A DNA stretch of 33,913 nt from Patescibacteria group bacterium (lineage in GTDB: Bacteria > Patescibacteriota > Minisyncoccia > Phycocordibacterales > GWA1-40-21). The notes under the pieces are model-generated. The model was not told the origin of the DNA, made no database searches, and worked only from the letters and a program-made list of their open reading frames with translations. Below, in pieces: positions 10,343-31,276 of this stretch. Within the stretch, counting starts at the first letter, position 1; each line of letters starts with the position of its first letter. The position numbers and the translations under genes are program-made. The DNA is taken from the NCBI GenBank assembly GCA_038078215.1, contig JBBUED010000003.1:8099-42011 (forward strand), in the 5' to 3' direction.

Positions 10343-10456
10343 GAATTGCGAAATTCCATTATTCGCGGAACACGCATAATTTTCGGCTGAAAATTTGCTC
10401 TGCTCGCGCAAGCCGCGCTTGCGCAAGTTTCCACTCATAACGGAATTTAGCAATTC
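10343..10456. repeat. Hairpin element with GAATTRCGAAA termini (copy 1)
   Basis: gaattgcgaaattcc (10343-10357) pairs with ggaatttagcaattc (10442-10456), 15 nt with 1 mismatch. Inner sub-hairpins: ttttcggctgaaaa and gcgcaagccgcgcttgcgc. The termini match those of the 13533-13665 element. Confidence 0.6.
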
Positions 10457-10535
10457 AAGACAGTCGGGTTTGGCACAGAAGAATAAAACATTTCATATTC
10501 TTATTCTTTCTTTACTAGCAACGATAACCTAGTCA

Positions 10536-11786
10536 CTAAAAATTGTTTTGTCTGTCTTGTTTCTTAAGAGAAAGACTCCAAAAAGTAAGGTCTTTTTTGT
10601 TGGTGAAAAATAAATACTCGTCATCGCCGCTCAAAAAAGGATCTATCACATCAAATTTATTACTACCCTCTTTCCCAAAATCAAAGACAAGCTCTGAAGA
10701 ATTTGTTTTAATGTTAACTCGCCATACGCTGTCATTAAAAGATATTAAACCCTGATACCAGCTGTCCGGGTATTCCCCGCTCTCTATTGTTTTGGGTATC
10801 GCGCAATAGACGACGAACTCTTCAGTCTTGCTCCAGACACATTTTTCCGGCAAAGTTTTGAATGAAAGCGTCTTATTTAGACTGCTTTTCAAGTCATAAT
10901 AATTCAGCCTTATTGAACCATCGAAACTTTCCGAATACAAAATATTTTTTGCCGTTCCGTCAACGAGAGAGGTCAGTCCGTTTATGCCGCTCAAAATTTT
11001 GTTTGCGCCGCCCGTTTTGCTGTTTAAGAAAAAAAGATAACCGGCGGCCGCGAAACTCGGCTTGGTGGCGAGCGTGATGGTTTCTTTGTTCGGCCACGAA
11101 ACCAACCACTCCATAATTGCGGATCGGAATATCCGATTTTTATTGGAGCCGTCCGTGTTGGATATCACACCTGCCGATTCGCCGCTTGTATTTATCAAGT
11201 AAAAAATTTTATCTCCGGCGGGATTCATTGATAATTGGATTATGTCTGAAGACAGAAAGGCGCTTTTCGGATTTTTACTCACATCTTGGGTGGTCGTCGC
11301 TTTTATAATATTGGCTGAAAAACTGGAAATTCTATCCGCTCCGTCTTTCAGGTAGCGCATAACAACCGTTTGTCCGGCGGGCGACCATATCGCTTGAGGC
11401 ACTTTAGGCACTGTGGCGTTGGATATTTTTGTTGACTCAAAAGAATCGCTGGTTGTTTCAACTATGTGCCCCGTTCCCCTCTCAACATAGCGAATGACAG
11501 TTGCGCTGCCGTTATTGAAAGCTATCCCCCCCGCGACAGGCTTGTCCGATATTTGTCTTAAGATTGGCATTTCCTCTTTATTTTCCACTGAACTCTGATT
11601 GTCTGTATTCGGACCGGATTCGGTTTGGGTATCCCCGCCTCCAAAATAAGAAGTTTCGGACGATGGACTCGTTGCGGTTTGCGCCGGAACCTCCTGTTTT
11701 ATGTATTTGTTCCAAAAATAAAACAAACCCGAAGCCAGAAGCGCGGCGATTATTAGCAATATTATAATTTTGTTTTTCGTTGACAT
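10536..11786 (-). CDS. Membrane-anchored hypothetical protein, beta-propeller-like (TolB/PD40-like) ectodomain, tentative
   Basis: N-terminal TM helix (IIILLIIAALLASGLFYFW), a low-complexity linker, then repeated beta-strand-rich segments (WSPAGQTVV..., GDKIFYL..., DDEYLFFT). Last gene of the minus-strand array, 4 nt after the pilin-like gene. Confidence 0.55.
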   Translation of the reverse strand: MSTKNKIIILLIIAALLASGLFYFWNKYIKQEVPAQTATSPSSETSYFGGGDTQTESGPNTDNQSSVENKEEMPILRQISDKPVAGGIAFNNGSATVIRYVERGTGHIVETTSDSFESTKISNATVPKVPQAIWSPAGQTVVMRYLKDGADRISSFSANIIKATTTQDVSKNPKSAFLSSDIIQLSMNPAGDKIFYLINTSGESAGVISNTDGSNKNRIFRSAIMEWLVSWPNKETITLATKPSFAAAGYLFFLNSKTGGANKILSGINGLTSLVDGTAKNILYSESFDGSIRLNYYDLKSSLNKTLSFKTLPEKCVWSKTEEFVVYCAIPKTIESGEYPDSWYQGLISFNDSVWRVNIKTNSSELVFDFGKEGSNKFDVIDPFLSGDDEYLFFTNKKDLTFWSLSLKKQDRQNNF

Positions 11787-11790
11787 AATA

Positions 11791-12372
11791 TTATATTGAA
11801 ATTGGTTCTGAAGGAGGGTCTATTTCGGAGGCGTCATCTTCAGTGGTCTCATTGTCGCCACTGTCCGTATTATCACCGGCATTGTCGCCCGTCGTTTCAC
11901 CACTGGAATAGTCATCGCTCTCATTTGTCTGTTCGCCGTCTTGGTTTGTGCTTGTCGTCGTCTCCACATTCAAATTAAAGTCAGTCAATTTCGGATTTAT
12001 CGTATACAAAAGAATCCAAGAAACAAGCACTAACACAAGCCCCCACAGAGCGTTTTGAATTCTTTCTTTTCCTTCAGACTTGCCCTGTATGGCGTCAGTG
12101 GTTATGTATTCCACCCCGCCTATGATAATCATAAGCACGGCTAAAACTCCAGCGATTCCTATGGCTAATTTGAAAATACCGGGAATATAAGTCTGAATGT
12201 TAGTGGTTCCTTCTTCATTTGTTGTGCCGGGAAGCGGAGCGAGGGGGGTGTATTCATCCCATGAGGTTGAAGTGTTTTCTGCCAGAGCAAAACCAGCTAA
12301 GCTTCCAAAGACCACGAAGCCCAATCCGAGAGATATTATTATCGCAATTATTTTTTTGTTTTTAAATCTCAT
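11791..12372 (-). CDS. T4SS-pilin-like (VirB2/TrbC-type) secreted membrane protein with a long acidic tail
   Basis: Signal peptide (IIAIIISLGLGFVVFGSLAGFALA) and two hydrophobic helices (IFKLAIGIAGVLAVLMIIIGGVEYI and ALWGLVLVLVSWILLYTINP) separated by a charged loop (QGKSEGKERIQN). This is the layout of the 'type IV secretion system pilin' family common in CPR. The C-terminal ~60 aa are rich in D/E/S/T/G. Confidence 0.6.
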   Translation of the reverse strand: MRFKNKKIIAIIISLGLGFVVFGSLAGFALAENTSTSWDEYTPLAPLPGTTNEEGTTNIQTYIPGIFKLAIGIAGVLAVLMIIIGGVEYITTDAIQGKSEGKERIQNALWGLVLVLVSWILLYTINPKLTDFNLNVETTTSTNQDGEQTNESDDYSSGETTGDNAGDNTDSGDNETTEDDASEIDPPSEPISI

Positions 12373-12378
12373 ATCTGT

Positions 12379-13428
12379 TTAAAACGATACTGTTTTATTA
12401 CCTCCGCCACCTTCAAAATTCAACAGCGCATCCGTTCTGGCCGATTGCAGTTCCTTGCTGTTGTTTTCATTTCGCAGTTCAACCGAAATTCTTGCCGAGC
12501 CCTTGGCGCCTTCGGCGTTGCGGAAAGTCACTTGTCTCTCATTTTGCTTGTCATTTATGCTTCGCCCATTCATGCTCCAATTGTATTTTATCTTTTGGCC
12601 GCCCGCATCCTCTTTGCTGAAGAAATAAGGTATTGCAACGAGAGTGATCTCGTTGTCGCTCAATTTATATTCTCCAGCTATCGCTTTATCGTAAATTATC
12701 CCATGCAAGGGACTGTTTTCATACATAATGGTTTTTGGCTCCACCGGCTCCAAAACGATGCTTCCGGAAGCTTTAATTTTCTTGTCGGACGACATTACTT
12801 CAACTTCTATTTCGGACGGGTCGGACAATATTGATTTTGAAAAACTGAATTTGTTTTTGCCGTACCCGGACACATCACCCAGGACTTTGCTGTTTTTAGT
12901 CCATTTGTACGTAAGATTGTCGGGATTGATTTTCACGCCTTCCGAATTGATTATGTTCGGCGCGGCAATGACCGTTATAAGACTTTGATAGCCGTAAAGG
13001 GCCTTGCCTTTGTAGAAAGGCGGGGTGTAGGAGTCTGCCTCCCAGAGAAGATCAACCCCTGCTGGTCTTATCACCAAAGTTTTTTCAATAGTTTTGCCTT
13101 CTTTCGTTTTAATAATCGCTTTTATAAAAGAAACGCTCCCGACGCCACCCGTCTTAAAGGAAAAAAATTTCTTGCCCAATCCTTTTTCTTTGATGGTCCC
13201 GTCAAGCGCCCATATTATTTCCGATGAATTCAAGTCAAAAGAAAAACTTTCAAGTCTGACGGAGACATTTTCGTTGGGACTCGGGGAGGATGGGGTTGTT
13301 ATTATTTCAGCCGAGTCTTTTATGTCATTCACATTCGCCGATTTTAATTGAGCGCCCGCTTTATTAAAAGTAAAAATCAAAAAAAGAGAGAATGAGACCA
13401 AGAATAATTTTGTAAATTTATTTTGCAT
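12379..13428 (-). CDS. Secreted hypothetical protein with about three Ig-like/beta-sandwich repeats
   Basis: Signal peptide (LFLVSFSLFLIFTFNKAGA). Repeated modules carry IIWALDG, LTYKWTKNSKVLG and IKYNWSMNGRSI motifs. Confidence 0.6.
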   Translation of the reverse strand: MQNKFTKLFLVSFSLFLIFTFNKAGAQLKSANVNDIKDSAEIITTPSSPSPNENVSVRLESFSFDLNSSEIIWALDGTIKEKGLGKKFFSFKTGGVGSVSFIKAIIKTKEGKTIEKTLVIRPAGVDLLWEADSYTPPFYKGKALYGYQSLITVIAAPNIINSEGVKINPDNLTYKWTKNSKVLGDVSGYGKNKFSFSKSILSDPSEIEVEVMSSDKKIKASGSIVLEPVEPKTIMYENSPLHGIIYDKAIAGEYKLSDNEITLVAIPYFFSKEDAGGQKIKYNWSMNGRSINDKQNERQVTFRNAEGAKGSARISVELRNENNSKELQSARTDALLNFEGGGGNKTVSF

Positions 13429-13532
13429 AAGAGATTTTTTGGGAAATGATGTTTAAAGCTGGCATTATTTTACCACAACCGCTTCAATCTTGACCATTTT
13501 TGTTTATCTTTAAGAAAGGCGTCTATTTCTAT

Positions 13533-13665
13533 GAATTACGAAACTCGTCGAGGCGGGCTATTTTGAAGGGGTTTTGAGCGCGACGGCGCGAAAATTTCAG
13601 GATTTTTTAAGCTTCAAAAAATCCGTACCTTCAAAATAGCCCGCCGAGTAAGAGTTTCGTAATTC
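13533..13665. repeat. Long hairpin element with GAATTRCGAAA termini (copy 2)
   Basis: Outer stem gaattacgaaactc (13533-13546) / gagtttcgtaattc (13652-13665). Second stem ggcgggctattttgaagg (13552-13569) / ccttcaaaatagcccgcc (13628-13645), 18 bp perfect. An inner hairpin is ggatttttt-aagcttc-aaaaaatcc. Confidence 0.75.
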
Positions 13666-13670
13666 AAAGT

Positions 13671-14066
13671 CTATTTGTTATCTTTAGCGGCGCTGTCAAC
13701 CATGGTTTTGTAAACTTCAGGAAAATGACCCCCAAGAATTTTTTTAGTCTGGAAGAACATAAAGATAACCACTATGGAAAGCGTCCATGCCGGCAAGGCG
13801 TTTAATCCGGGTATAAGCTCTATAAAAAAAGTTCCTACCGTGGTAGCGACGACTTTGGAATCAAATTTTGATCCCACCAATCTAAACCACAGGAAAAAAG
13901 TGAGCCAAGCGAAAATGCTGACCCCGCTTGTTATTGTCCATGCCAGTATAAAACCAACATAAGGAATGAAGTTCATCAAATCCGCTCCAAACTGAATCCC
14001 GTCAAAGAAAAGAGCGACAGCAATCATCGCCCACATTGTTATTTTGTTTATTTCTTGGTCTTCCAT
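13671..14066 (-). CDS. Small polytopic membrane protein (131 aa, about 4 TM), unknown function
   Basis: Four hydrophobic segments and no signal-peptide cleavage site. Immediately downstream of the VirB4-like gene. Confidence 0.6.
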   Translation of the reverse strand: MEDQEINKITMWAMIAVALFFDGIQFGADLMNFIPYVGFILAWTITSGVSIFAWLTFFLWFRLVGSKFDSKVVATTVGTFFIELIPGLNALPAWTLSIVVIFMFFQTKKILGGHFPEVYKTMVDSAAKDNK

Positions 14067-14082
14067 ATTTGTTTAGGGTAAT

Positions 14083-14152
14083 AGCTTGTAGTTTATTAGC
14101 TTTTTAGTATCGGGCTCTTAATCTTACCTAACAAGCTACAAGCTAAAAAGCT
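14083..14152. repeat. AGCT-periodic repeat pair between the VirB4-like gene and the 131-aa gene
   Basis: agcttgtagtttattagctttttag (14083-14107) and cctaacaagctacaagctaaaaagct (14127-14152), in opposite orientations. Confidence 0.6.
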
Positions 14153-14159
14153 TCCCCTC

Positions 14160-15974
14160 CTAACCAATCGCTTCCATCTCCTCCTTGGCTTTTTTAATCG
14201 CCAAAAGTTGGGATGGGTCGGAAGTTATTATCTGGTCTTCGGTGTATGAGGCGATTATTTTGATGGCGACATGTTTTAACCCCACGAAGAACATTCCCTC
14301 CCCAACATCGGATTCAAGCAGAAGATATTTTTCTTCTTCCGTTAGGTTGAATATTCTCTGAAGATTGTCTATCGTGGATGATGACTGCTTTAACAAAACT
14401 TGAATGGATGAGTTGCTGATAATAGGCATTCCGTAGGGGGATTTAAGGAAGTCATCCACATCCTGCGTGATCGTGGCAAGCCCGAGATAATATTTTCGTC
14501 CTCTTTTCGCCAAGCTAAAGAGGAATGACGCCGTGTCCTCCGATTTCATCATCCACCAAGCCTCGTCAATAACCAAAAGTCGTTTCTTCAAAGTTTTTCT
14601 GATAGCGTTCCAGATAAAGTGCGTGACTATATACATCGCCACGGGCTTGAGCTCGTCTTCCATATCTCTTATGGAGAAGACTATGAACTTGCTGTTTATG
14701 TCCACATTGGTCGGGCGATTGATAAACCCCGCCCATGTGCCTTTGGTGTATTTTGAAAGTTTTTGCACGAGTCCTTCCGCTCCTTCCATACCCGCGAGCA
14801 CAAGCTCAAAGTCGGAGAGAAGCGGCGGCTCAATGTTGGAAAAATCGGAGTCGGCGGTAATGTCTTTAAGGGCGTAAGTTTCGCTGATGGCGCGGTCAAT
14901 TATGGCGTCTTCTTCTGGAGAGAGTCCGCCGAGCATAATTCTGAAAAGTCCGACGAGGTTGATTATGTTTGAGCGCAAAACATCCGCGGGCGATTCATCC
15001 TCTCTCGCCGTAGGCAAGTCAAAAGGGTTTATATGATTGTTGGAATTAAGAGATATATTGAAATATTTTCCACCGGTCGCTTCGGCCATATATTCGTATT
15101 CTCTCTCCGGGTCAATCACGATTATCTCCGCGCCGAACATAAGTGTTCGCAATATTTCAAGCTTCGCGGCATAAGATTTGCCGGCGCCGGACTTGGCGAA
15201 AATTATGGAGTTGTAATTTTCAAGAGAGAATCGGTCAAAAAGAACTAAGCTGGAATTGTGCCTATTTATTCCATAAAGTATGCCCTTGTCTGAAGTAAGG
15301 TCAAAAGAAATAAACGGGAAAAGGCTTGAGATGGGCGATGAATTTAATTTTGAATACACATTGAGCTCGTCGGACGCTATCGGCAAAACGCTCTTGTATC
15401 CTTGCTCTTGTTGGAAAAGAGCGGGTTTCAAATAAACAAGTTTTGATTCAAGTATTGTCTTTATTTCCGATTCAATTTTATCAAGCTCATTGTCGCTGTC
15501 TCCGTAAATGGTGATGTAAACCGCCACATCAAAAAGTTTTTCTTGCGCCTGCTGAAGATTATCTCTCAAACTTTCAAGGTCTCGGTAAGCGGTGTCTAAT
15601 ATAGGGTCGCGAACCAGCCCTTTTCTTTCCCTTTCGTTGATCTGACTTTGGACTTCGGCGACTTTTTTCTGGAATTGACGGAGCATTTTTTCGGTTTCAA
15701 TCGGATGAATGGATATTGAAATGTCAAAGACTTTGTCCAAGTTTATTACCGGAGAAAACCAGCTTTCCGACAAGTATCGGGGATAGGAAATCACAAAAAA
15801 AGTTCTAGCGATTTTATCGCCCAAATTCAGTCCCTTAGGGGTTATTTTAAGGGCGGACGGCGCGATAATGTCTTGGAGCTCCAAAACGCCGGCCTCGTAT
15901 ATTTCTTGCGGCAAAACCGAAGAAATTGCCACCTGCTTTTCTTTTTTTCCGAATAATTTGTTGAAAAATGACAT
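14160..15974 (-). CDS. VirB4/TrbE/PrgJ-like type IV secretion ATPase
   Basis: Walker A FAKSGAGKSYAAK, VIDPEREY, Walker B RLLVIDEAWWMM, and a VirB4-type N-domain (LNLGDKIARTFFVISYPRYLSESWF). Confidence 0.85.
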   Translation of the reverse strand: MSFFNKLFGKKEKQVAISSVLPQEIYEAGVLELQDIIAPSALKITPKGLNLGDKIARTFFVISYPRYLSESWFSPVINLDKVFDISISIHPIETEKMLRQFQKKVAEVQSQINERERKGLVRDPILDTAYRDLESLRDNLQQAQEKLFDVAVYITIYGDSDNELDKIESEIKTILESKLVYLKPALFQQEQGYKSVLPIASDELNVYSKLNSSPISSLFPFISFDLTSDKGILYGINRHNSSLVLFDRFSLENYNSIIFAKSGAGKSYAAKLEILRTLMFGAEIIVIDPEREYEYMAEATGGKYFNISLNSNNHINPFDLPTAREDESPADVLRSNIINLVGLFRIMLGGLSPEEDAIIDRAISETYALKDITADSDFSNIEPPLLSDFELVLAGMEGAEGLVQKLSKYTKGTWAGFINRPTNVDINSKFIVFSIRDMEDELKPVAMYIVTHFIWNAIRKTLKKRLLVIDEAWWMMKSEDTASFLFSLAKRGRKYYLGLATITQDVDDFLKSPYGMPIISNSSIQVLLKQSSSTIDNLQRIFNLTEEEKYLLLESDVGEGMFFVGLKHVAIKIIASYTEDQIITSDPSQLLAIKKAKEEMEAIG

Positions 15975-16007
15975 AATTTTTTTATTTATTTTCCTTCACC
16001 CTCCCCT

Positions 16008-16036
16008 CTGTCATTCCCGTGAAAACGGGAATCCAG
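16008..16036. repeat. GTCATTCCCG palindromic hairpin
   Basis: ctgtcattcccgt-gaaa-acgggaatccag, between the 212-aa gene stop and the VirB4-like start. The ctgtcattcccg arm recurs at 23956-23968. Confidence 0.5.
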
Positions 16037-16038
16037 TT

Positions 16039-16677
16039 TTAATTTATCTGAATCGGCTTTTCGGTGTCGCCCGGATTAAATATCTTGTAAAACAGCTCCA
16101 CCACCTCTTCCGTCCCTAGTCCTATCGTCCTTATGCCCGCGCGCACCAAACCTTGTTCAACCACGGACACCCTCTGCTCCAATTGCATCCTATTCTCTTC
16201 AAAACTATCGCTTCTTTCTTTGGCGGCGTTTGATTCTTTTCTGTTTCCCAGGAGGCTGCCGACCAATTGCGACTTAGCGCCCACGATAGGGGGGTCGTAT
16301 GGTATGACGACGAAGAAACTTTTTGTCATTATGTTGGAATTCTCCGTGAAATTTTTTATGAAGGCGATATATTCTCTTATCTGTATTTTCATCAGGTCAT
16401 TCAGTTGGTCTTTGTATCGTTCCTCAAGCAGGGCTATATACGGTCTTATGTCCAACTTTCTTGACTGGATGAATATTTGAATCGGAAAATCAAGCGAATT
16501 CAAGAAATTTTGAAATTGGTAGATTATGGAATTGCGCTCGTCCTCGGATTTTAAAGCGAAGTTAAGAGAAGACGCCATTAGAATTGCTCGCATTGAATTG
16601 TTTTTCAAAATAACAATGCCATCTCTTACTTCTTTGATCGGCACGAAATCCTGTGTTGCTTTTGATTTGGTTGGCAT
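16039..16677 (-). CDS. Stand-alone VirB4 N-terminal-domain-like protein (212 aa)
   Basis: FVPIKEVRDGIVILKNNSMRAILMASSLNFALKSEDERNSIIYQFQNFLNSLDFPIQIFIQSRKLDI resembles the N-terminal (non-ATPase) domain of Gram-positive VirB4 homologues. There is no P-loop. Confidence 0.5.
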   Translation of the reverse strand: MPTKSKATQDFVPIKEVRDGIVILKNNSMRAILMASSLNFALKSEDERNSIIYQFQNFLNSLDFPIQIFIQSRKLDIRPYIALLEERYKDQLNDLMKIQIREYIAFIKNFTENSNIMTKSFFVVIPYDPPIVGAKSQLVGSLLGNRKESNAAKERSDSFEENRMQLEQRVSVVEQGLVRAGIRTIGLGTEEVVELFYKIFNPGDTEKPIQIN

Positions 16678-16680
16678 TGG

Positions 16681-16883
16681 GTTAGCTTGTTAGGTTGTAG
16701 CTTCTTAGCTTGTTAGGTTCAGAACTGAAAGCTTTTAGTAATAATAACATATTAATGAAGTTCTTAAGGTTTATAAAGTTATAAAGTAAATCTTCTCCAA
16801 ACTATTTTTTTAAAAAGTTAATAAGCTACAGGCTACTTTTCTTCCCCCTTCTCTTCCTAAAAAGCTACAAGCTAAACAGCTAC
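16681..16883. repeat. 'Empty' inverted-repeat cassette (AGCT family arms around a ~100-nt AT-rich loop)
   Basis: Left arm gttagcttgttaggttgtagcttcttagcttgttagg (16681-16717). Right arms ataagctacaggctac (about 16821-16836) and cctaaaaagctacaagctaaacagctac (16856-16883). The loop contains an ATAAAGTT-type segment. Confidence 0.6.
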
Positions 16884-17314
16884 TTCCTATAATCTCCCCT
16901 CGTTATCGGATTAATATTTTCATTGATATCCAGGCTCCATGTAAGGTCCTTAAGCTTGCTCTCCGACAATTTTGGAACTTTCAAAAGAGTTGAATTTCCG
17001 TCGGGCAAATTTTCTTTTTTTATTATCGGCTTTTCTCTTTTTTGCCACAAATATAATTTGTTACTAAAAACATATTTTACGGCCGATTCAAGGATGAAGA
17101 TAAACGGCTTGCCGTTGATTTTGTAAAAAGCCAGAGCAACGGAAAAAATCATAACCGGCACTATGAAAAATAAGGCCACGATAATATAAGGAATGATAGA
17201 ATAAATAACGAAAGAAATCCCTCCTCCTCCAGCTAGATAAATAAACTGCTTCAAGGTCAAAGGCCCGAATATCTTGTCTTCTATTTCAATAAATTGCGGG
17301 ACTTGGAAACGCAT
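16880..17314 (-). CDS. PrgI family (VirB3-like) T4SS membrane protein
   Basis: MRFQVPQFIEIEDKIFGPLTLKQFIYL followed by two TM helices is the characteristic PrgI-family N-terminus. The gene sits next to the VirB4-like genes. Confidence 0.65.
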   Translation of the reverse strand: MRFQVPQFIEIEDKIFGPLTLKQFIYLAGGGGISFVIYSIIPYIIVALFFIVPVMIFSVALAFYKINGKPFIFILESAVKYVFSNKLYLWQKREKPIIKKENLPDGNSTLLKVPKLSESKLKDLTWSLDINENINPITRGDYRK

Positions 17315-17856
17315 GTTAGCTGTTTAGCTTGTAGCTTCTTAGCTTTTTAGGTTAAGAGTACTTAATTTTTTAAGGAAGAGAGCATTTTGTTAAGCATTTT
17401 CATCACTTCTGACAAAAGGCTTTCTGATTTAGTATAACTTAAATTTTTTCCGAAAGATAAACTTTTTGCAATCTCCAATTGTGTTTCCAGTTCTGCTCCA
17501 GAACCGTAAGAAACAAGTAAGAAATAATTCAACTCTTTTCTGCTCCCGCGTCTTCTACCCTCGGCTATGTTGGAAGGAATAGATATGGAAGACCTTTTCA
17601 TTTGAGAGGACAGCCCGTAAATTTCTTCTTTTGGAAAATGTGCTGTCAGTTCATAAATAGACCTCACTAATTCCATCGATTTTTGCCAAACTATCAAATC
17701 TTTATAAGAATTTATCTCTTTTGTTTCCATATTTGTTTAGGGTAATTGCTTGTTAGGAAGAGTAAGAGAGGATTGCTTATGTCTTTTTATTATTCGTGCC
17801 TAAAAAGCTTACCCCTCCCCACCTCTCCCCCTAAAAAGCTACAAGCTAATAAGCTA
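17315..17856. repeat. Inverted-repeat-bracketed cassette carrying the four-helix-bundle gene
   Basis: gttagctgtttagcttgtagcttcttagctttttagg (17315-17351) against cctaaaaagctacaagctaataagctac (17829-17856). The arms are near-complementary apart from one extra 8-nt unit and enclose CDS 17362-17730. Confidence 0.55.
17362..17730 (-). CDS. Four-helix-bundle protein (23S rRNA intervening-sequence protein / Avd-like family)
   Basis: LIVWQKSMELVRSIYELTAHFPKEEIYGLSSQMKRSSISIPSNIAEGRRRGSRKELNYFLLVSYGSGAELETQLEIA matches the family signature (W-Q-K ... FP..E ... Q..R...SI..NIAEG ... GS..EL.T). Confidence 0.8.
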   Translation of the reverse strand: METKEINSYKDLIVWQKSMELVRSIYELTAHFPKEEIYGLSSQMKRSSISIPSNIAEGRRRGSRKELNYFLLVSYGSGAELETQLEIAKSLSFGKNLSYTKSESLLSEVMKMLNKMLSSLKN

Positions 17857-18645
17857 CTTTCCTACCTGTTCCCTATACGGGTCAACTTTCTTGTCCACGC
17901 TCGGTTGTTTTGTCTTGGATTGCGGCGCAGAATCATTGATCACGATTGTTTCTTTGGGAACGCTTACTGTTCCAGCCATCTTTGTCTTGAAAATATCTTT
18001 TTCCATTGTTCTTACTATATCTTCCTGCGGTACGGATGGTTTCTGGGGTGCTTGGTATTTTGTTGGGTTAATGATCGCGGCATTGGTCTTGTTGTATGCA
18101 TTCTGAAAAGCTGTTTGACTACTCTCTACTACAACAGGTTTCTCAACAATCTCAACTTCACTTGGACGTTTCGTTCCCAAGTGAAGTTCGGTTTTATTAA
18201 CCGCAGGCAAATTATGATGTTCTTTATCTTCAATTTCTCGCAGTATGTCTTCCCTCTTAAGGATTTCTTCTTCTGTTGTCTTAGTGTCTTTTCTCTCTTC
18301 TAATAAGCCACCTCCTGATTCACTTCTTTCCTCAGATATTTTCTTGAGCGATTCCCTCACCTTCAGAAAAATTTCCCGATTCAAATCTTCCGCTATCGCC
18401 TCGGCTTTTTCTTCCGTCACTTCCGCGTGTTTGGTGATGTTTGCGACTAGATTGTTAGCATGTTCAATGCCGAACATCACCAAGACAGTTTCTTCCCCAA
18501 GATGCCCCGCTTGGTCTATGTGGAGATTATGTTTGTCTGAAATTTTTCTTAATTTTTCTTTCCACGGAATAGACATTATCGCTTCCTGAATATCCTTAGG
18601 TAGCTGTTCAAACCTCTCTTTTAATATTTGTTCGCTATAATTCAT
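17854..18645 (-). CDS. Hypothetical soluble protein (263 aa), charged and low-complexity C-terminal half
   Basis: Long ORF co-directional with the array, with no TM or signal peptide. Helical N-terminal domain (ERFEQLPKDIQEAIMSIPWKEKLRKISDKHNL...). Confidence 0.55.
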   Translation of the reverse strand: MNYSEQILKERFEQLPKDIQEAIMSIPWKEKLRKISDKHNLHIDQAGHLGEETVLVMFGIEHANNLVANITKHAEVTEEKAEAIAEDLNREIFLKVRESLKKISEERSESGGGLLEERKDTKTTEEEILKREDILREIEDKEHHNLPAVNKTELHLGTKRPSEVEIVEKPVVVESSQTAFQNAYNKTNAAIINPTKYQAPQKPSVPQEDIVRTMEKDIFKTKMAGTVSVPKETIVINDSAPQSKTKQPSVDKKVDPYREQVGK

Positions 18646-18664
18646 TTTTTAAATTACTATTTTA

Positions 18665-20701
18665 TTATGGAGTTGTTGGACTAGCTCCACCGCCACCAGC
18701 CCCACCCGCTCCGCTTGCTCCACCCGTTTGTCCTTTTGTTTTTTCTGCAACTAATTTATCTATCAGCTCTGCGACCTCTTTCTCGCCCTTGCTTTTACCT
18801 TTCCTTATCTCTGCCGCCGCATCAGCTCCTGATGGGAATAATTTGTTCAAGACACCTGATTCAAATTCAATCTTTTTCGCGTACCCTTTCTTCATTCTGT
18901 CTCGGACTCTGTCTCTGTAGGACTTGATAGTTTCTATATTTTCTTTGGCTCTATTTATATCATGGCTCTGATTGTCTAAAATAGCTTCTTCTCTTTGCAG
19001 GCTTTCGTATGCTAGTTGGGCGGCATCAAGATCGGTGGCGGCCATAGTTCTTGAAGCTGTATCCGCAAGTCTTCTGTGTTCTATCTTTGCGTCATTCACA
19101 TTATTTTTGAGTTTAATTACAGATTCCATTTTCCGATCTATCAATTCTTCTTCTTTTCTTATCAACTCATCTGTTTTTCCTACTTTAGCCTTACCAACAA
19201 ACTCACCCATTTTTTTCTTTTTATCGGTACTCTTTTTCAGAGCGTCAGCGTAGCCAGTTTTACTGCCGAATTTTTGTCCCGCCACATTATCAAATTGCGT
19301 CTTGGCAAAAGTGCCCAAGGTTGGCGATTTTGCCATAAGCCTCGCCATATATTTATTATTACCCGCCAAATAAGCCGCTCGGCCGAGCGTGTTTCTCCCC
19401 GCGACACCCTGCGCCCAGTTTTGGAATTTGCCTGTGTATTTCAACACTCCGGCGGAGCCTTTGTCCGCCATATCTTTTGCGACTATGAGCGCCCCGATCA
19501 TTAAAGCCATCAATATTACATAGTTCATTATTATGGGGAATGCTCCAACGGTCGGTGAAGAAATAGCATCGTAAAAAGTAGATGTGGAATCGTTTCCTCC
19601 CACCGCTGTCCATAATTGACCAGAATTAATTATGGCGGAAATTAGATAAGCCATAAACAAGAAAGCCGGGGCGAATAAGGCTTGGCTCTGCAATCCTTTC
19701 CACCATTTCGTGGAGTACTCTTTCATTTCGGGGGAAATCAGTCCAAGAAAAGCAACCGGAGAAAAAAGCATATAAAACATAAGAGCGACGAATCTGACGA
19801 TAAACAAAAGCGCGACAGAGAGAAAAACAAAAGCCGAAACAAGAAACAGCGCTGAACCGCCAAGATTATTTAGCGTTATGTTGAAATTAGTAAGACCTTT
19901 ATAAGAATCTTGTTTATTATAGGATGACTCAGGAGATGGTATGCTGGTTTGAAGTCTCATACCCGCCATCATAGCGGTGGAGACGGAACCTGTGGATATG
20001 AGTTTTTTCTCCTCATCAGTACCATCAAGATTGACTTTGGCTGTTCCTACTTCAGTCTGCACGGCATTATAAAATCCCATAGCCACGATGTTAGACGCGT
20101 CTATGATGGCTTTGGTCATAAAAAGACTGAAGTTTATGAAAAGCCCGACCACGATGATATTAGTCAGAAGTTTTTTTGTATCGCCGCCTACCCCCAATAT
20201 CGTCTTAATGGCGATATAGAGCAAGATGAAAATAAAGAGCATATTCGCCACATTTAGGACTATTTTGTACCCCGTGTTTATAACATTGATTCCGTCTATG
20301 TTCTCTTTAAAATCTTTCACCGAGAAGTCCACAGCGTAATCTAGAAGGTAGCCACTCATAGTAAATATTCTAGATGATACATACCATGTGAAACTGGAGA
20401 TCCATGCAAGCATTTGACCGATCGTCGCGTCGGCTATTTTACCCCAGTCTCCCCAAGCTGCAACATTTTGTCCTACAGCGTAACCAGGAATTAAGTTCTT
20501 AGGGTCATCGTGAACATCTTTACCGAATTTAACAAATTCATCAGCCACTTTGTCGTACCAAGTACCACTATACCAGTGACCTTCTGATGCCAATATTTTT
20601 TTCGGTCCAGATACCGTTCCGGAAAAAGGCCCAACAAAAGAAATCCACAGAAAAGTTCCCACCATCGCCACTATTAAAATGTAAGGTATGAATTTTTTCA
20701 T
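18665..20701 (-). CDS. VirB6/TrbL-like polytopic membrane protein with a coiled-coil C-terminal domain and Gly/Ala tail
   Basis: At least 8 hydrophobic helices over about 430 aa, then a charged helical region and GGASGAGGAGGGGASPTTP. Assigned by size, topology and position next to the VirB4/PrgI genes. Start moved to ATG 20701 (MKKFIPYILIV...), 8 nt after the upstream stop. Confidence 0.5.
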   Translation of the reverse strand: MKKFIPYILIVAMVGTFLWISFVGPFSGTVSGPKKILASEGHWYSGTWYDKVADEFVKFGKDVHDDPKNLIPGYAVGQNVAAWGDWGKIADATIGQMLAWISSFTWYVSSRIFTMSGYLLDYAVDFSVKDFKENIDGINVINTGYKIVLNVANMLFIFILLYIAIKTILGVGGDTKKLLTNIIVVGLFINFSLFMTKAIIDASNIVAMGFYNAVQTEVGTAKVNLDGTDEEKKLISTGSVSTAMMAGMRLQTSIPSPESSYNKQDSYKGLTNFNITLNNLGGSALFLVSAFVFLSVALLFIVRFVALMFYMLFSPVAFLGLISPEMKEYSTKWWKGLQSQALFAPAFLFMAYLISAIINSGQLWTAVGGNDSTSTFYDAISSPTVGAFPIIMNYVILMALMIGALIVAKDMADKGSAGVLKYTGKFQNWAQGVAGRNTLGRAAYLAGNNKYMARLMAKSPTLGTFAKTQFDNVAGQKFGSKTGYADALKKSTDKKKKMGEFVGKAKVGKTDELIRKEEELIDRKMESVIKLKNNVNDAKIEHRRLADTASRTMAATDLDAAQLAYESLQREEAILDNQSHDINRAKENIETIKSYRDRVRDRMKKGYAKKIEFESGVLNKLFPSGADAAAEIRKGKSKGEKEVAELIDKLVAEKTKGQTGGASGAGGAGGGGASPTTP

Positions 20702-20709
20702 TGAAATTT

Positions 20710-22887
20710 TTACTCCGAAAATACTCGGGCTGCGCCGCCGCATTTTACTGTCACGCTCTCGTCGCCCGAAGTGACTGTCACTTGGGCGGTTTTATTTCCG
20801 GTTTCCGTGTATGTGGTCGCCGTCGTTTCTCCGCTTCCGATTAAGCCATCGGTTCCCGACCAGTTGTAGCCGTAATCACCCACCCCTCCGGAAGCCGTCG
20901 CCGTCCAAGTGAATTCCGTGCCGTCGCTGTTCCCGGTGTCAACCGCGCCCGCGATAGGGTCAAAACTGCAAGAAGCGGAGAGTTTGGTGTTCGTCACTTC
21001 AACTTTATTTGAACAAGCCACCGTGGTCGTCGTTTCACCTTTTGTTATTTCAACGCTCGCTGTTTTAGCTTCATCTCCGGTTCCAGTTGTCGTATAACCA
21101 ACCTCAACCGATTCCGTGTCGCCCGATGGGCCGTCCGTGTCATCTGACAGCCAGTTATAAGTCGCGCTTTCGCTTGTATCCGCCAATGACGCGCTCCATT
21201 TTACAGTTTGATTGACTAGAGCGCTTGTCTTATCCGCGGAACAAGAGTCAACAGTTACCGATCCTTCCGATGATTCTGAAGATGACGAAGATCCTCCCTC
21301 GTCTGAAACATCAACAGTTCCGCAATCATAGCCGGAGCTCGCTCCATCATTCGTAACTGTCACGCTCGTTGATTTCTCTCCCGATTCAAAGTAATAAATC
21401 GTGAATGATTTAGCGCTACCAGCGTCTTCAATCGCATTTCCGTTTTCGTCCTTCCATTCATAGGTTGCGCTATCGTAAGAACTGTCGGATGAATACGGCG
21501 TCCATGTCCACTTCACGCTGCCGCCTGCTTTGATTGATGATTTGTTGGCGGAACAATAGCCATCAGCCCCCGAAGCGACATCGGAATCATCTCCCGCGGC
21601 AACCTTGACCGAGCCGCTGCATTTTATGGTTGCGCTCTTATTGCCTTTCTTGACAGTGACCCTCGCCTTTTTTGTTCCGGCGCTATTGTAAGCAATCTGC
21701 AAGCGGCGAGTTTCAGTTTCGGTATCCGTCTCAATTTCAGCGCCGTTCCATTTGTATTCCGGGGTCTTGTCTGAAGGGCCTCCCGAAACATAAACCGTCC
21801 ATTCAACCGTCTCTCCCGTGAGGGCCGAGCCGGTATCGGCTGTGCAGGTTCCGGTTATTTTCGTGTCAGAACTTTGCTCTTCAAGGTCGCTTGATGTGCC
21901 TCCCCAATCTCCCGATGATGAATTCATAGCGGCCAAACCTTTCGTAAGAACCGTTTTTACAAGCTGACCAACCAGCGCGCCAACTATCTTGTCTATGTCA
22001 TCGGCAAGCTCAAGCTGTCGCAAGCCCGTGCCAAGCGTATGTTCCAACTGGCTCTCAATGACTGAACCGGGAGTTTTTATATCACTATATTTAGTGCATG
22101 TCTGGTTTTCATTGGACTTATCTTTTTTTGTGGTCTCATCGGTAAGCTCAACACCGGGGCCGGCATCAGACGGCGCGGAAGTTTTTGTGGCATACTGCTC
22201 GCATGTTCTCCACGACAAGAAACCTTTGCCCCAGTCCAGCTTTTTGACTTCCATATCTTTGTTTTGCTGAATTCTTTTTTGAAGTTCAGCTTGCATGCTC
22301 AAGAAAGCGGTTCCGGGGTTGGCGTTTGGATTAGTAGTTAGATAAATCCACCCTTTCCAGCCGCCTTCCTTGAAAGTGCCGTTAACAAAATTATCAAAAT
22401 TTTTAATAATTCCGGTCAGGGTGCATTTTCTCTGCCGTTTAAAATTTCCTATTCCCAAAGAAAGGGCGATTTTAATGTTTAATTTGTACGGGTCGCAGAG
22501 CCAGCCGAATTTAGTCATTTCATTTATAAATTCTCCGACCACTTCGTCGCCGACATCAAGAAGAAAGCTCTGCGGGTCTGTCACGAATGACGGCGAGCCT
22601 TCAAACCCGCTGTTTATCCAATTGACTATGCTGTCCGTGATTTGGGCGAGCAGAGTTTTCATTACGAGATTGTAGATACCATTCCAGCTGAAGCCTGGCA
22701 CGGTATAACCCATCACGGTCACTCCGACGAATTTTGACCTCAAAGCGTCATCTGAAACTGGAACGGGCGGAACAGTGTCAATAGCGTAAACAGTCCTTAT
22801 CGCCAAGCTGGAAAACGACAGAGATACGATAATCGGAATTATTAAGAGATAAGAAAGTATTTTTTTGTTTCTAAAAAAGAAGTTCAT
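20710..22887 (-). CDS. Large secreted/surface protein: unknown N-terminal domain plus four tandem Cys-bracketed PKD/Ig-like repeats
   Basis: N-terminal signal/anchor (LSYLLIIPIIVSLSFSSLAI). Four ~77-aa modules, each running from Cys to Cys (aa 348-423, 445-522, 549-625, 640-716), with conserved V-x-W and Y-x-W motifs. ATGA overlap with the upstream gene. Confidence 0.7.
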   Translation of the reverse strand: MNFFFRNKKILSYLLIIPIIVSLSFSSLAIRTVYAIDTVPPVPVSDDALRSKFVGVTVMGYTVPGFSWNGIYNLVMKTLLAQITDSIVNWINSGFEGSPSFVTDPQSFLLDVGDEVVGEFINEMTKFGWLCDPYKLNIKIALSLGIGNFKRQRKCTLTGIIKNFDNFVNGTFKEGGWKGWIYLTTNPNANPGTAFLSMQAELQKRIQQNKDMEVKKLDWGKGFLSWRTCEQYATKTSAPSDAGPGVELTDETTKKDKSNENQTCTKYSDIKTPGSVIESQLEHTLGTGLRQLELADDIDKIVGALVGQLVKTVLTKGLAAMNSSSGDWGGTSSDLEEQSSDTKITGTCTADTGSALTGETVEWTVYVSGGPSDKTPEYKWNGAEIETDTETETRRLQIAYNSAGTKKARVTVKKGNKSATIKCSGSVKVAAGDDSDVASGADGYCSANKSSIKAGGSVKWTWTPYSSDSSYDSATYEWKDENGNAIEDAGSAKSFTIYYFESGEKSTSVTVTNDGASSGYDCGTVDVSDEGGSSSSSESSEGSVTVDSCSADKTSALVNQTVKWSASLADTSESATYNWLSDDTDGPSGDTESVEVGYTTTGTGDEAKTASVEITKGETTTTVACSNKVEVTNTKLSASCSFDPIAGAVDTGNSDGTEFTWTATASGGVGDYGYNWSGTDGLIGSGETTATTYTETGNKTAQVTVTSGDESVTVKCGGAARVFSE

Positions 22888-23909
22888 ATATTGTTCAAAC
22901 TGTAACCCGGCTCGTTTGCGGAATAAATTATTTTATTTTCAAACAGATATTTAGCCAGCTCGTTTAACAGGGTTTTTTCTTTTCCTTCCGCTTCCATATG
23001 TCTCTGCGTTCCTATCATTCCCATAACAGGATCGCTTGAGAGCAGACTCAATTCCTTGAGTCCGTCGGAGCTTGCCATATAATTATTTAATATTTCCATA
23101 TGGGTTTGGAACAAGTCTTTTGGCGCCGCTATCCTTGACAATTCCACTGCCATATTTTTATAAACCTCCGAAACTCTGATGAGTCCTTTGAGAAATTCAG
23201 GGTCCACTAAATTGGCCGTTTCACCTTCTTTCACTAGAGGATTTTCAAGATATTGTTTTTGATATTTGGTTCGGATTAAGGCGAAAGAGTTGCCGTATGA
23301 TTTCAAGAGGACTTTATTGTCGGACGGAAAAGTTTTTATATCTTTCGGAAAATAATACTGAATAACTTTTTTGTTATTAAGTTCCTCGGCCACCAAATTG
23401 TTGGCGACGGCGGCAACGGACTCTTCATTGAAATTTCCCGATTGTTTCAAATTTATGTATTCGGCAAAAAGCTTTTTGCTTATAATGTCCGTTTCCGTGT
23501 CGGTCGTATACGACTCGCCTTCTATGCCGTTTTCGTTTGAGTCCTCCGTTTCGCTTTTCGCGTCAATTTCCGTTATTTTCTTTTTGACTTCTTCCGCGTC
23601 CGGTATGCCGTCGCCGTCAGTGTCGGGATTATGCGGGTCAAGTTTCCACAAGGTTTCTTCCCAGTCTTTGAGTCCGTCGCTGTCCGAATCAATATCCAAA
23701 ACTTCCACCGGATTTCTGACGACTTTGACTTCAGCGACGGTTTCCGCCCCGATTTCTCTTGTTGATTTTTGTTTGAGCAACAAAAAAGCCACCCCTCCCA
23801 GCGCGAGAAAAGTCAAAAATAATAAAATTATTTTTTTAGATCGCGATTTCAAATTATTCAAATGAAACTTAATAAAATTATACCAAATAAAAAGTTTAAT
23901 AAACAGCAA
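22884..23909 (-). CDS. Membrane-anchored protein with thrombospondin-type-3-like Ca-binding repeats
   Basis: TM helix (IILLFLTFLALGGVAFLLL), then DIDSDSDGLKDWEE and DPHNPDTDGDGIPDAEE (DxDxDGxxDxxE repeats). The track start is a TTG, so the true start is uncertain. Confidence 0.6.
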   Translation of the reverse strand: MLFIKLFIWYNFIKFHLNNLKSRSKKIILLFLTFLALGGVAFLLLKQKSTREIGAETVAEVKVVRNPVEVLDIDSDSDGLKDWEETLWKLDPHNPDTDGDGIPDAEEVKKKITEIDAKSETEDSNENGIEGESYTTDTETDIISKKLFAEYINLKQSGNFNEESVAAVANNLVAEELNNKKVIQYYFPKDIKTFPSDNKVLLKSYGNSFALIRTKYQKQYLENPLVKEGETANLVDPEFLKGLIRVSEVYKNMAVELSRIAAPKDLFQTHMEILNNYMASSDGLKELSLLSSDPVMGMIGTQRHMEAEGKEKTLLNELAKYLFENKIIYSANEPGYSLNNI

Positions 23910-23919
23910 ACTGACAGAA

Positions 23920-24017
23920 GGTTGTAGGGGTTAGGTTGTAGGTTGTAGGTTTTTTCTGTCATTCCCGCCTGCCCTCCTTCGCTAAAAGCTTCGAAAGGGC
24001 AAAGCGCGGGAATGACA
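23920..24017. repeat. GGTTGTAGG repeat copy followed by a GTCATTCCCGC palindrome
   Basis: ggttgtaggggttaggttgtaggttgtagg (23920-23949), then tgtcattcccgc (23957-23968) ... gcgggaatgaca (24006-24017) with an imperfect inner stem (gccct..ttcg / cgaa..agggc). Confidence 0.6.
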
Positions 24018-24098: not shown

Positions 24099-25232
24099 AT
24101 GAATAATCCTAATAAAATTGCATTTTTCAGCTTTATTTTTCTGCTATTTTTTGTTTGGGGGAGGTTTAATTTTGAAATTCATTTTGCTTTGGCGGAAGAT
24201 GAATCAAAATCATTCTTTTTTAATAAAAACCTTAAAACTGGCGATAGGAATGAGGATGTCAGAAATTTACAGAAAATTTTGAACAAAAATTCAACCACCA
24301 AAATTTCTTCTTTCGGTTCGGGGTCATCAGGCAACGAAACCGACTTTTTCGGCGAGTTGACCAAAAAAGCCGTTATAAAATTTCAAGAATTGCACGCTTC
24401 AGAGATTTTATATCCATTCGGTCTAAAATCCGGCACAGGTTTTGTCGGTGCCGCGACCAGATTAAAATTCAATTCTTTGATGGAAAAAGATGAGGAAAAC
24501 ACCCTTTCGGTTTCAGTAAAAAATAATTCCTCCGCTCAAACAGAAAGTTCTTTCAGCGGTCGTTCGTACAAAGTTGTCTCAAGTTTGGAACAAGACAAAC
24601 AAGATGCCGTTAGCAATTCAAGCTCGGCCAGTTTCTCGTTTTTTGGGTCAGAAGCGGTTTCGGTTAGAGTTTATAACACTTCAGAATATCAAGTTTCGCC
24701 CGGCGACGATGTGATTTTAACGGGTGAAGGATTCACTTCATTGTCAAATACCCTTCATTTAGGAGAAAATCGCTCAATTCCTAATTTAGCTGCCAGTGAA
24801 AAAGGCACAAAAATATCTTTTGTTATTCCAAAAGATTTACCGCTTGCAAAATACGGCATTTGGGTTACAAACGCGAACGGGACGAGTAAGAGTAATGCCG
24901 TAAAGATATATATTGTTATTACAGATAGTCCGACAGATAGACCTGTTGTGGAAAAAATTGAGCCGAGAGAAGCGACTTATGACAGTGAAATAACAATTTC
25001 CGGGAAAGGATTTACCGCAAGTGGAAATAACATATATTCAATGTTTGGCAACATAATGAATATTCCCTCGTCCGACGGAAAAACATTAAAATTCAAAGCA
25101 TCGTCAATGCAACAGATAGTAAAAATACAAGCTGATAAAAGCGCAAAAAATATGCCTATAGAAGTTTGGTTTTATGTTGTGAATGATAACGGGTATAATA
25201 AAGAGCCAGCGAGTTTTATAATTAAATTTTAA
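24099..25232 (+). CDS. Secreted protein with a peptidoglycan-binding (PG_binding_1-like) domain and two IPT/TIG-like domains
   Basis: Signal peptide; LKTGDRNEDVRNLQKILN ... FGELTKKAVIKFQELH (PG-binding signature). Two modules resemble VSPGDDVILTGEGFTS... and PVVEKIEPREATYDSEITISGKGFTASGN. Confidence 0.7.
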   Translation: MNNPNKIAFFSFIFLLFFVWGRFNFEIHFALAEDESKSFFFNKNLKTGDRNEDVRNLQKILNKNSTTKISSFGSGSSGNETDFFGELTKKAVIKFQELHASEILYPFGLKSGTGFVGAATRLKFNSLMEKDEENTLSVSVKNNSSAQTESSFSGRSYKVVSSLEQDKQDAVSNSSSASFSFFGSEAVSVRVYNTSEYQVSPGDDVILTGEGFTSLSNTLHLGENRSIPNLAASEKGTKISFVIPKDLPLAKYGIWVTNANGTSKSNAVKIYIVITDSPTDRPVVEKIEPREATYDSEITISGKGFTASGNNIYSMFGNIMNIPSSDGKTLKFKASSMQQIVKIQADKSAKNMPIEVWFYVVNDNGYNKEPASFIIKF

Positions 25233-28700: not shown

Positions 28701-28740
28701 AGGTTGTAGGCGGTAGGTTGTAGGTTGTAGGAAAAGAGAA
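28701..28740. repeat. GGTTGTAGG repeat (G-rich orientation) upstream of pcrA
   Basis: aggttgtaggcggtaggttgtaggttgtaggaaaagagaa; inverted relative to 26688-26722. Confidence 0.6.
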
Positions 28741-31236: not shown

Positions 31237-31276
31237 ATAGTTGTTTGACAATAAATTTTATTGGAGGGGACTATTT

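Follow-up and report, generated by a model that had tools for sequence, protein, structure and literature searches.

A survey by Quinonero-Coronel et al. 2025 (PMC12102498) found VirB4 in 2,417 of 3,035 Patescibacteria genomes (about 80%), with nearly all of these proteins in one clade nested in MPF-FATA, the class of Gram-positive conjugation machinery among type IV secretion systems (T4SSs). The associated components were TrsD, PrgI/VirB3, VirB6, and PF18895 or VirB2-like pilins. In Paceibacteria and Microgenomatia the neighbourhood was enriched in dnaA, dnaN, rnpA, ksgA, and rpmH, and just 15 relaxase genes were close to virB4 out of 2,474 VirB4 homologues. In Southlakia epibionticum, Wang et al. 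2023 (PMC10633639) annotated SEML1_0006-0019 as an unusual T4SS of Gram-positive-like type, which has pilins but neither a coupling protein nor a relaxase; transposon sequencing (Tn-seq) showed that this cluster is essential for epibiotic growth, while comEC is dispensable (PMC10633639, PMC12857230). The Patescibacteria systems are regarded as a recognised newcomer to the T4SS superfamily in a 2025 FEMS review (PMC12857230), and a 2024 perspective described their role as 'completely unknown', mentioning effector delivery or nucleotide uptake (PMC11665869). A 2026 preprint described tubular structures at a parasite-host interface and suggested that they are T4SS pili (bioRxiv 10.64898/2026.06.21.733656). 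Here, we analyzed a 33.9-kb stretch of contig JBBUED010000003.1 from a Patescibacteria group bacterium (hereafter, the window), in which a minus-strand array at 10536-23909 is this already published Patescibacteria chromosomal T4SS; the system itself is not new. An original prediction made for the array before any database search had called it an orphan, a description that cannot be kept given the distribution of the system.

The array is very probably a Patescibacteria-clade T4SS, derived from Gram-positive (MPF-FATA) conjugation machinery, fixed in the chromosome of a groundwater Paceibacteria (Parcubacteria) bacterium, and acting at the host interface. It consists of a split VirB4 motor, a PrgI/VirB3 anchor, a VirB6-like platform, one VirB2-like pilin, and five or six exported or membrane proteins. 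The 12 co-directional open reading frames (ORFs) listed in the original prediction are present on the minus strand exactly where it placed them and were recovered, with two different starts, in independent gene calls, namely public ENA contigs with the same sequence from the 0.1 and 0.2 um filter fractions of the Hainich groundwater well H52. In these calls g1 has 299 aa and g3 has 678 aa, starting from M15; the true starts are likely near 23783 for g1 and at M15 (20701) for g3. As predicted, more than half of the genes (7/12) have no recognisable family. The genes, numbered g1 to g12, are as follows (TM, transmembrane).

22884-23909, minus strand: g1, bitopic membrane protein with a short calcium-binding TSP3-type repeat (sub-threshold TSP3_bac match; TSP3, thrombospondin type 3) and a helical C-domain
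20710-22887, minus strand: g2, exported or anchored protein with a helical N-domain and a C-terminal binding module (weak PKD-like repeats)
18665-20743, minus strand: g3, extended VirB6-like polytopic membrane protein, 692 aa (indirect evidence)
17854-18645, minus strand: g4, soluble protein without a TM segment; no family or PDB match
17362-17730, minus strand: g5, 23S_rRNA_IVP four-helix bundle (PF05635, 6.5e-36)
16880-17314, minus strand: g6, PrgI/VirB3-type membrane protein with two TM segments (PF12666, 5.5e-11, above the Pfam cutoff)
16039-16677, minus strand: g7, TrsD-like stand-alone VirB4 N-terminal domain, 212 aa (NF045975, TrsD, TIGR00929, PF26593)
14160-15974, minus strand: g8, VirB4 ATPase, C-terminal two thirds (NF045971, CD1110 family)
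13671-14066, minus strand: g9, small polytopic membrane protein; its slot, after VirB4, is fast-evolving
12379-13428, minus strand: g10, secreted protein with a signal peptide (weak Ig_2 match, 0.062; Hoc 3shs, E 0.0075)
11791-12372, minus strand: g11, VirB2-like T4SS pilin (T4SS_pilin PF18895, 2.2e-11)
10536-11786, minus strand: g12, N-terminally anchored protein with conserved cysteines (profile match to TolB 7mx5, E 0.0096)

Relatives were collected by a scan for VirB4 in one genome per species, which found 587. Synteny counts refer to the 40 loci with full 10-kb flanks, and a wider set comprises the best 80 of the 587 by VirB4 similarity. The VirB4 proteins of these 80 were 78-83% identical to g8 and all came from Patescibacteria/CPR (candidate phyla radiation) or unclassified metagenome-assembled genomes, the named relatives including Taylor-, Zambryski-, Kaiser-, Campbell-, Nomura-, and Wolfebacteria.

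The motor is the best-defined part of the array. g8 matched the CD1110-family VirB4 model of NCBIfam at 1.4e-114 (384 bits versus a curated cutoff of 325) and Pfam P-loop_TraG at 1e-26, and both its Walker A (GAGKS) and Walker B (LLVIDEAW) motifs are intact. g7 aligned to the N-terminal 100-230 residues of VirB4 models (positions 4-178 of TIGR00929); its matches to NF045975 (6.9e-13) and TrsD (2.1e-06) were each under the curated cutoff, and its precomputed domain is PF26593 TraC-like. The split between TrsD and VirB4 is native and does not reflect a frameshift, because the TrsD-like protein is encoded by a separate gene of about 212 aa, stable in length, in 80/80 loci. In VirB systems, VirB3 tethers VirB4, and VirB4 dislocates the pilin from the membrane; by analogy, we infer that the PrgI/VirB3-type g6 anchors VirB4. 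Family profiles therefore bear out four labels of the original prediction, VirB4, VirB4 N-domain, PrgI, and pilin, with the N-domain matching below curated cutoffs.

The VirB6 label had to be approached indirectly, as g3 has no direct Pfam or NCBIfam match. In g3, about six TM segments are joined to a coiled-coil tail of ~270 aa at the C-terminus, and this combination is the 'extended VirB6' layout of PMC12857230. A TrbL/VirB6 Pfam match was obtained for 4 of 40 g3 orthologues (best E 6e-05), and the homologue P0218 (E 1e-24 to g3) scored 26.4 bits against TrbL, versus a cutoff of 25.9, over profile positions 22-213 of 215. Residues 1-500 of g3 were modelled with AlphaFold2 (pLDDT 75, pTM 0.68, membrane core above 90), and the model was compared with 350,542 PDB chains by Foldseek. 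The top match was TrwI/VirB6 (8rt9_F, E 0.012, probability 1.00, TM-scores 0.28/0.42), and the next ones were the TrwI/VirB6 chains 8rtd_L, 8rtd_H, and 7o3v_J of the R388 T4SS. PF19590, precomputed for g3 homologues, was not reproduced in a Pfam scan at E <= 0.01 and was not relied on. Because the TrbL matches of orthologues, the TrwI/VirB6 fold matches, and the layout of TM segments and tail converge, we consider g3 to be VirB6-like with moderate confidence; the label thus stands on orthologues and fold comparison, not on any direct match.

The pilin g11 scored 44.1 bits against PF18895 (cutoff 26.6) and consists of a signal peptide, two TM helices, and a 70-aa acidic low-complexity tail. The PF18895 core was retained in 39/41 pilin orthologues, whose total length ranged from 106 to 575 aa and whose C-terminal extensions fell into about 25 unrelated sequence clusters. 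Single orthologues carried NlpC/P60, SLT, CHAP, He_PIG, or M15-like matches, one each; the window's own g11 shows no such hydrolase fusion. A cysteine-rich domain of roughly 160-180 aa is common to the C-termini of six orthologues (L026, L034, L035, L066, L074, and L077), as in the L035 pilin at 12922-13770 of its locus. In four of the six, an H..D-type motif and an HWH at the extreme C-terminus resemble LAS/M15 zinc peptidases. An assignment of this 'HxxxD...HWH' cluster to M15/LAS peptidases serves as a lead only, since only one of the six (L035) matched Peptidase_M15_4, at E 0.001 and below cutoff; the cluster had no PDB sequence match either.

The genomic context of the array is conserved among its relatives. 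In 40/40 Paceibacteria loci, the array lies in the essentially invariant order pcrA-rsmA-array-yidC-rnpA-dnaA-dnaN. The full order is pcrA, rsmA, (PG-binding protein, orf133), g1, g2, g3, (g4), PrgI, TrsD, VirB4, (g9), g10, pilin, g12, followed downstream in the related loci by yidC, rnpA, dnaA, dnaN, and PBP1. All 40 loci have g3, PrgI, TrsD, VirB4, g10, pilin, g12, yidC, and dnaA; less universal were g2 (39/40), rsmA (37/40), g1 (31/40), and g4 (detected in 23/40). Since order and context recur in 40/40 loci, the array is ancestral and vertically inherited and does not represent an island; the test of neighbourhood conservation that the original prediction had proposed thus came out in its favour. 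Identities measured on the same 35 genomes were 80% for VirB4 (apparently slightly inflated, as the loci were picked by VirB4 similarity), 66% for TrsD, 61% for DnaA, 56% for PrgI, 55% for PcrA, 52% for DnaN, and 49% for YidC and RsmA, and they continued downward with the pilin core (44%), g10 (34%), g12 (33%), the g2 N-domain (33%), the VirB6-like protein (29%), and g1 (26%). This gradient fits a motor that would be under constraint, together with surface parts that appear to be diversifying.

No gene for DNA transfer or mobility was found around the array. Family scans of all larger ORFs of the window detected no relaxase, coupling protein, VirB11, or integrase; the window contains no tRNAs, and no direct repeats bracket the array. 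Among the 12 proteins, there was no match to the families of the outer-membrane core (VirB7/VirB9/VirB10) or to VirB11. The original prediction had described a non-conjugative, minimal T4SS-like machine on the chromosome of an episymbiont, equipped with adhesin-like proteins, and had named an ordinary conjugative element, recognisable by an adjacent relaxase, type IV coupling protein (T4CP), or integrase or by direct-repeat boundaries, as the contrary outcome. None of these hallmarks is present in the window, and the core families, the lack of DNA-processing genes, and the synteny in 40/40 loci agree with the machine as described.

Nothing essential differs between this array and the clade described in PMC12102498. 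Both have VirB4, a separate TrsD, PrgI/VirB3, VirB6, and a PF18895 pilin, and both are chromosomal, beside dnaA/dnaN/rnpA/rpmH/ksgA(rsmA), with no nearby relaxase or T4CP. The Southlakia T4SS shares the core order VirB6 - x - PrgI - TrsD-like - VirB4, the location beside dnaA/dnaN, the PF18895 pilins, and the absence of relaxase and T4CP within the cluster. It differs in its six tandem pilins, versus one in the window, and lysozyme-like hydrolases, an NTF2-like (VirB8-like) protein, and a pair of ~1,000-aa proteins are on the Southlakia side only. In their place the window has g2, g10, and g12, and no hydrolase or NTF2-like protein was detected in it.

A more distant likeness is to the Gram-positive MPF-FATA systems (CD1110/CTn2, pCF10 Prg/Pcf), which share the VirB4 family NF045971, a prgI gene directly upstream of virB4, and a monoderm architecture without VirB7, VirB9, and VirB10. 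When VirB4 was searched against 72,556 plasmids, the best matches were CD1110-type ATPases of Gram-positive bacteria (Bacillota, Actinomycetota), 29-37% identical to g8. Clostridium perfringens pSXP-169_2 encodes, in one stretch, MobC, a relaxase, DUF3801, a VirD4-like CD1115 protein, two hypothetical proteins, PrgI, an unsplit 783-aa VirB4, and an SLT hydrolase. In contrast to this arrangement, with its unsplit VirB4 and adjacent MobC, relaxase, VirD4-like T4CP, and SLT hydrolase, the window has a split VirB4 and a pilin and lacks both the DNA-processing module and the hydrolase. Gram-positive T4SSs are generally without a VirB2-like pilin (PMC12102498, PMC12857230), and none is annotated in the pSXP-169_2 stretch, as judged by annotation, under which two of its proteins are hypothetical.

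The remaining proteins of the array are mostly exported or membrane proteins. g1 matched TSP3_bac at 8.3e-05, under the cutoff, and its family profile matched a biofilm surface-protein repeat (7c7r) at 4e-04. g10 is probably built of Ig-like beta-sandwich repeats, and the ectodomain of g12 is probably a membrane-anchored beta-propeller; g12 orthologues matched PD40 (2/41) and DPPIV_N (1/41), and the cysteines C316 and C328 are invariant. The conserved parts of g4 are an N-terminal stretch of ~110 aa and a C-terminal DPYRE motif, which follows a low-complexity linker and in which D255, Y257, and E259 are invariant among orthologues; the motif looks like a short docking peptide. g9 has no family match and no PDB match. 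A small ORF with predicted TM segments occupies this post-VirB4 slot in most of 71 loci, and about 10 loci have essentially no gap there. The idea that g9 is a second, divergent pilin was rejected (hhalign probability 0.9%, no PDB match).

Homology searches place g2 in a very large family without a name, in which the N-domain is constant and the binding modules can be swapped; the family is tightly linked to the VirB6-like gene. The N-domain (about residues 54-321) is conserved, with W90, G94, P99, C131, C155, N190, G222, F223, T272, P273, G274, and G317 invariant, and has no Pfam family. A word-indexed search found 492 homologues, every one annotated as 'hypothetical', and an exhaustive search found 6,761 representatives of 50% clusters at E <= 0.001, of which 3,832 were at E <= 1e-30. 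Homologue lengths ranged from 306 to 1,170 aa among the 150 matches listed. The C-terminal modules differ by species: weak PKD repeats in the window's g2, F5/8-C or NedA-like galactose-binding modules in 6/41 orthologues, and bacterial surface Ig-like modules in 2/41. An AlphaFold2 model of the N-domain is helical (pLDDT 66, pTM 0.34); compared with the PDB by Foldseek it gave nothing below E = 2.9, and a PDB-sequence profile search was also empty.

In the mechanism that we propose, the split VirB4 would dock via TrsD and PrgI on the VirB6-like platform and use ATP to extract the pilin from the membrane, and the pilin would then be assembled into a short surface filament or conduit. In the R388 structure, VirB6 is the base of the stalk and recruits VirB2. 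The exported g1 (TSP3-like), g2 (PKD, lectin, or Ig modules), g10 (Ig-like), and g12 (propeller-like) would be the wall-spanning and host-contacting part, and the apparatus would work at the interface between episymbiont and host, not in conjugation. That the array forms a contact or pilus structure is, in our view, somewhat more likely than not.

Several points weigh against this explanation. The VirB6 evidence is weak, the best Foldseek match having the E value and TM-scores given above. The TSP3, PKD, Ig, and beta-propeller labels given to the adhesin-like proteins in the original prediction found sub-threshold matches only, and profile searches of g1, g4, g10, and g12 found no VirB8-like (NTF2) or VirB1-like protein in the array. 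Many pilin orthologues carry C-terminal domains of 200-330 aa, which may be hard to fit into a packed VirB2-type pilus. The contrast between VirB4 and the other proteins is slightly overstated by the choice of loci. Essentiality is known from one Saccharibacterium with different accessory genes. Finally, the relaxase, T4CP, VirB11, integrase, and att-like boundary that the original prediction had reported missing are indeed missing from the window, but this holds at the level of the window only, and VirD4-like genes are present elsewhere in most Patescibacteria genomes (PMC12102498).

Among the other explanations, the one that survives best overlaps with the explanation favoured here: a dedicated uptake machine like Helicobacter pylori ComB or archaeal Ced, bringing DNA, RNA, or other macromolecules of the host into a cell unable to make nucleotides, which we regard as a tentative possibility. 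ComB and Ced, which serve import and not conjugation, likewise have a VirB4-type ATPase, are chromosomal, and lack a coupling protein and relaxase. Import is favoured in PMC12102498 and raised in PMC11665869; in Southlakia, the essential T4SS and the dispensable comEC point the same way (PMC10633639, PMC12857230), and another member, with tubular structures at its host interface, was reported to feed on the RNA of its host (bioRxiv 10.64898/2026.06.21.733656). However, nothing in the array was recognisable as a nuclease or a nucleic-acid-binding component, ComB is diderm and contains VirB7-10, and the likeness to Ced is limited to the P-loop of the ATPase, the partial matches of g8 to CedB (1.9e-09, ~70 residues) and CedD covering that shared region only.

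Most non-conjugative T4SSs export proteins, and this typical function favours effector export, in which proteins would be injected into the host bacterium to co-opt or damage it. We consider this rather unlikely. Wang et al. wrote that the Southlakia system 'may instead export proteins' (PMC10633639), and the NlpC/P60, SLT, CHAP, and M15-like domains fused to single pilin orthologues could act on the host wall. On the other hand, the locus has no T4CP, the usual substrate receptor, and a distant T4CP homologue is non-essential in Southlakia (PMC12102498). Moreover, no candidate effector gene is conserved beside the array.

Doubtful, in our view, is an organelle for adhesion only, a VirB4-assembled pilin fibre that would display variable binding domains and have no substrate channel. 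In the VirB system of Agrobacterium tumefaciens, T-pilus assembly is independent of VirD4, and VirB2, VirB3, VirB4, and VirB6 are the pilus-biogenesis core; this core is what the array has, and its surface parts vary strongly. Yet the large cytoplasmic tail of the extended VirB6, like the extreme degree to which VirB4 is conserved, points to a function beyond assembling a fibre, and type IV pili already serve adhesion and motility in Patescibacteria (PMC11623550, PMC12857230).

An integrated conjugative element, or a decayed remnant whose DNA-processing module was lost or hidden, is extremely improbable and already largely refuted: VirB4 belongs to the CD1110 conjugative family, PrgI and VirB4 are adjacent as in Gram-positive plasmids, and the array is somewhat richer in GC (0.40-0.50) than the dnaA region (0.26-0.34), but relaxase, T4CP, integrase, tRNA, and bracketing repeats are missing from the window, context and order are the same in all 40 loci, which span several Paceibacteria candidate phyla, VirB4 is conserved more strongly than DnaA, the reverse of decay, and a relaxase close to virB4 is as rare as PMC12102498 reports.

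One gene inside the array does not belong to the T4SS. The four-helix-bundle label of g5 was correct, as the 23S_rRNA_IVP match shows, while its place among the components was not: a gene of this type occurs in only 6/40 related loci (L018, L027, L035, L065, L072, and L077), in slots that vary between g4/PrgI, PrgI/TrsD, and TrsD/VirB4. Because of this low count and the varying slots, we regard the IVP gene as a sporadic insert, distributed as would be a small mobile or repeatedly inserted gene. A reading of g5 as part of a diversity-generating retroelement was rejected: its bAvd match was below cutoff (25.3 bits versus 40), and there was no reverse transcriptase among the ORFs and no template/variable repeat (TR/VR) pair or long direct repeat pair. 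The 5' leader and first codons of g5 (17711-17753) are 86% identical to those of g9 (14047-14089).

The other features of the window are as follows.

13530-13670, minus strand: stable 135-nt hairpin between g9 and g10 (dG -68 kcal/mol, z -10.9)
675-794, 14072-14156, 16681-16723, 16841-16891, 17315-17357, and 17815-17864: spacers with the motif TAGCTTnTTAGCTTnTTAG
7254-7381, no strand assigned: cluster of the DnaA-box variant TTATACACA, three copies, in the AT-rich dnaA-dnaN spacer, ~3 kb from the array
24099-25232, plus strand: exported protein with PG_binding_1 (8e-06) and TIG (2.5e-05) domains, divergent from the array

Beyond the g9-g10 hairpin, at 13496-13467, lies a promoter-like site, TGGTCA-18-TAAAAT, with a TG upstream of it. 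Because the hairpin is succeeded by this site, g10, the pilin gene, and g12 may form a separate transcription unit, the hairpin probably being the boundary; it is not conserved in relatives. A second stable palindrome follows g12 (10345-10480, minus strand; dG -51 kcal/mol, z -5.0), and the two have similar GAATTnCGAAA-type termini. They could be terminators, elements like miniature inverted-repeat transposable elements (MITEs), or structured RNAs; an Rfam scan gave 0 matches at gathering thresholds. The motif TAGCTTnTTAGCTTnTTAG and its complement form inverted, hairpin-forming pairs in several spacers, both within the array and in the yebC-ruvC spacer, and a second motif, (AGGTTGT)n, occurs at 23919-23958, 26306-26345, and 28701-28740. 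TAGCTTnTTAGCTTnTTAG was found in only 4 of 80 related loci, with 1-2 copies each, and none of the spacers tested, the (AGGTTGT)n one included, had a significant match in related loci. A role of the intergenic hairpin repeats as conserved T4SS regulatory elements was rejected, as they are essentially private to the source genome and are found outside the array too.

The array is flanked on one side by yidC, rnpA, rpmH, dnaA, dnaN, and a class A penicillin-binding protein gene, rpmH having been added between rnpA and dnaA by the independent gene calls, and on the other side by rsmA/ksgA, pcrA/uvrD, and a LysM-M23 peptidase gene. These flanks confirm the predicted site between yidC and rsmA/pcrA near the origin. 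The dnaA-dnaN spacer with the TTATACACA cluster is the probable oriC: DnaA-box variants have 21 matches in the window versus 8 expected, three of them inside this spacer, and the GC content of 7001-8000, the spacer region, is 0.26. A further TTATACACA variant is located at 7646. The minimum of the cumulative GC skew and a switch of gene strand lie near 31.1 kb and do not coincide with the TTATACACA cluster in the window. The divergent PG_binding_1/TIG gene adjoins the array in 17/40 loci, and its product is possibly an accessory cell-wall factor, a frequent neighbour of the system. The neighbouring genes of about 300 aa at 31241-32152 and 32190-33050 (both plus strand) have no family match at E <= 0.1 and no counterpart in the relatives' loci. 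The gene at 1750-3168 (minus strand) encodes a class Ib aminoacyl-tRNA synthetase (Trp/Tyr type) of 472 aa, in which the match to the catalytic domain begins at residue 202 after an unannotated N-terminal extension of ~200 aa.

What the window adds to PMC12102498 is g1, g2, g10, and g12, the modular C-termini of g2 and the pilin, the sporadic IVP insert, and the post-VirB4 ORF slot. In classical operons, virB5 precedes virB6. Because g2 is likewise encoded directly upstream of the VirB6-like g3, it can be likened to VirB5, and we raise, as an unlikely but specific idea, that g2 might be a functional analogue of the VirB5 tip adhesin and form, with the pilin, a modular host-recognition cassette. 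If this were true, the helical N-domain of g2 would dock on the VirB6/pilin stalk, and host specificity would lie in its swappable PKD, galactose-binding, or Ig modules at the C-terminus. The pilin would be a constant membrane/fibre module showing unrelated C-terminal domains, cell-wall hydrolase-like ones included, on the filament. Together, g2 and the pilin would make the T4SS a feeding conduit that binds and breaches the host envelope.

Few machines are known to be essential to the epibiotic way of life of this vast and largely uncultivated bacterial radiation, and the Patescibacteria T4SS is one of them. The window is a clear example from Paceibacteria and does not represent a new kind of system, and its leads lie in the accessory proteins: the fast-diverging modular exported parts, the g2 family, and the C-terminal domains of the pilins are natural candidates for determinants of host range.

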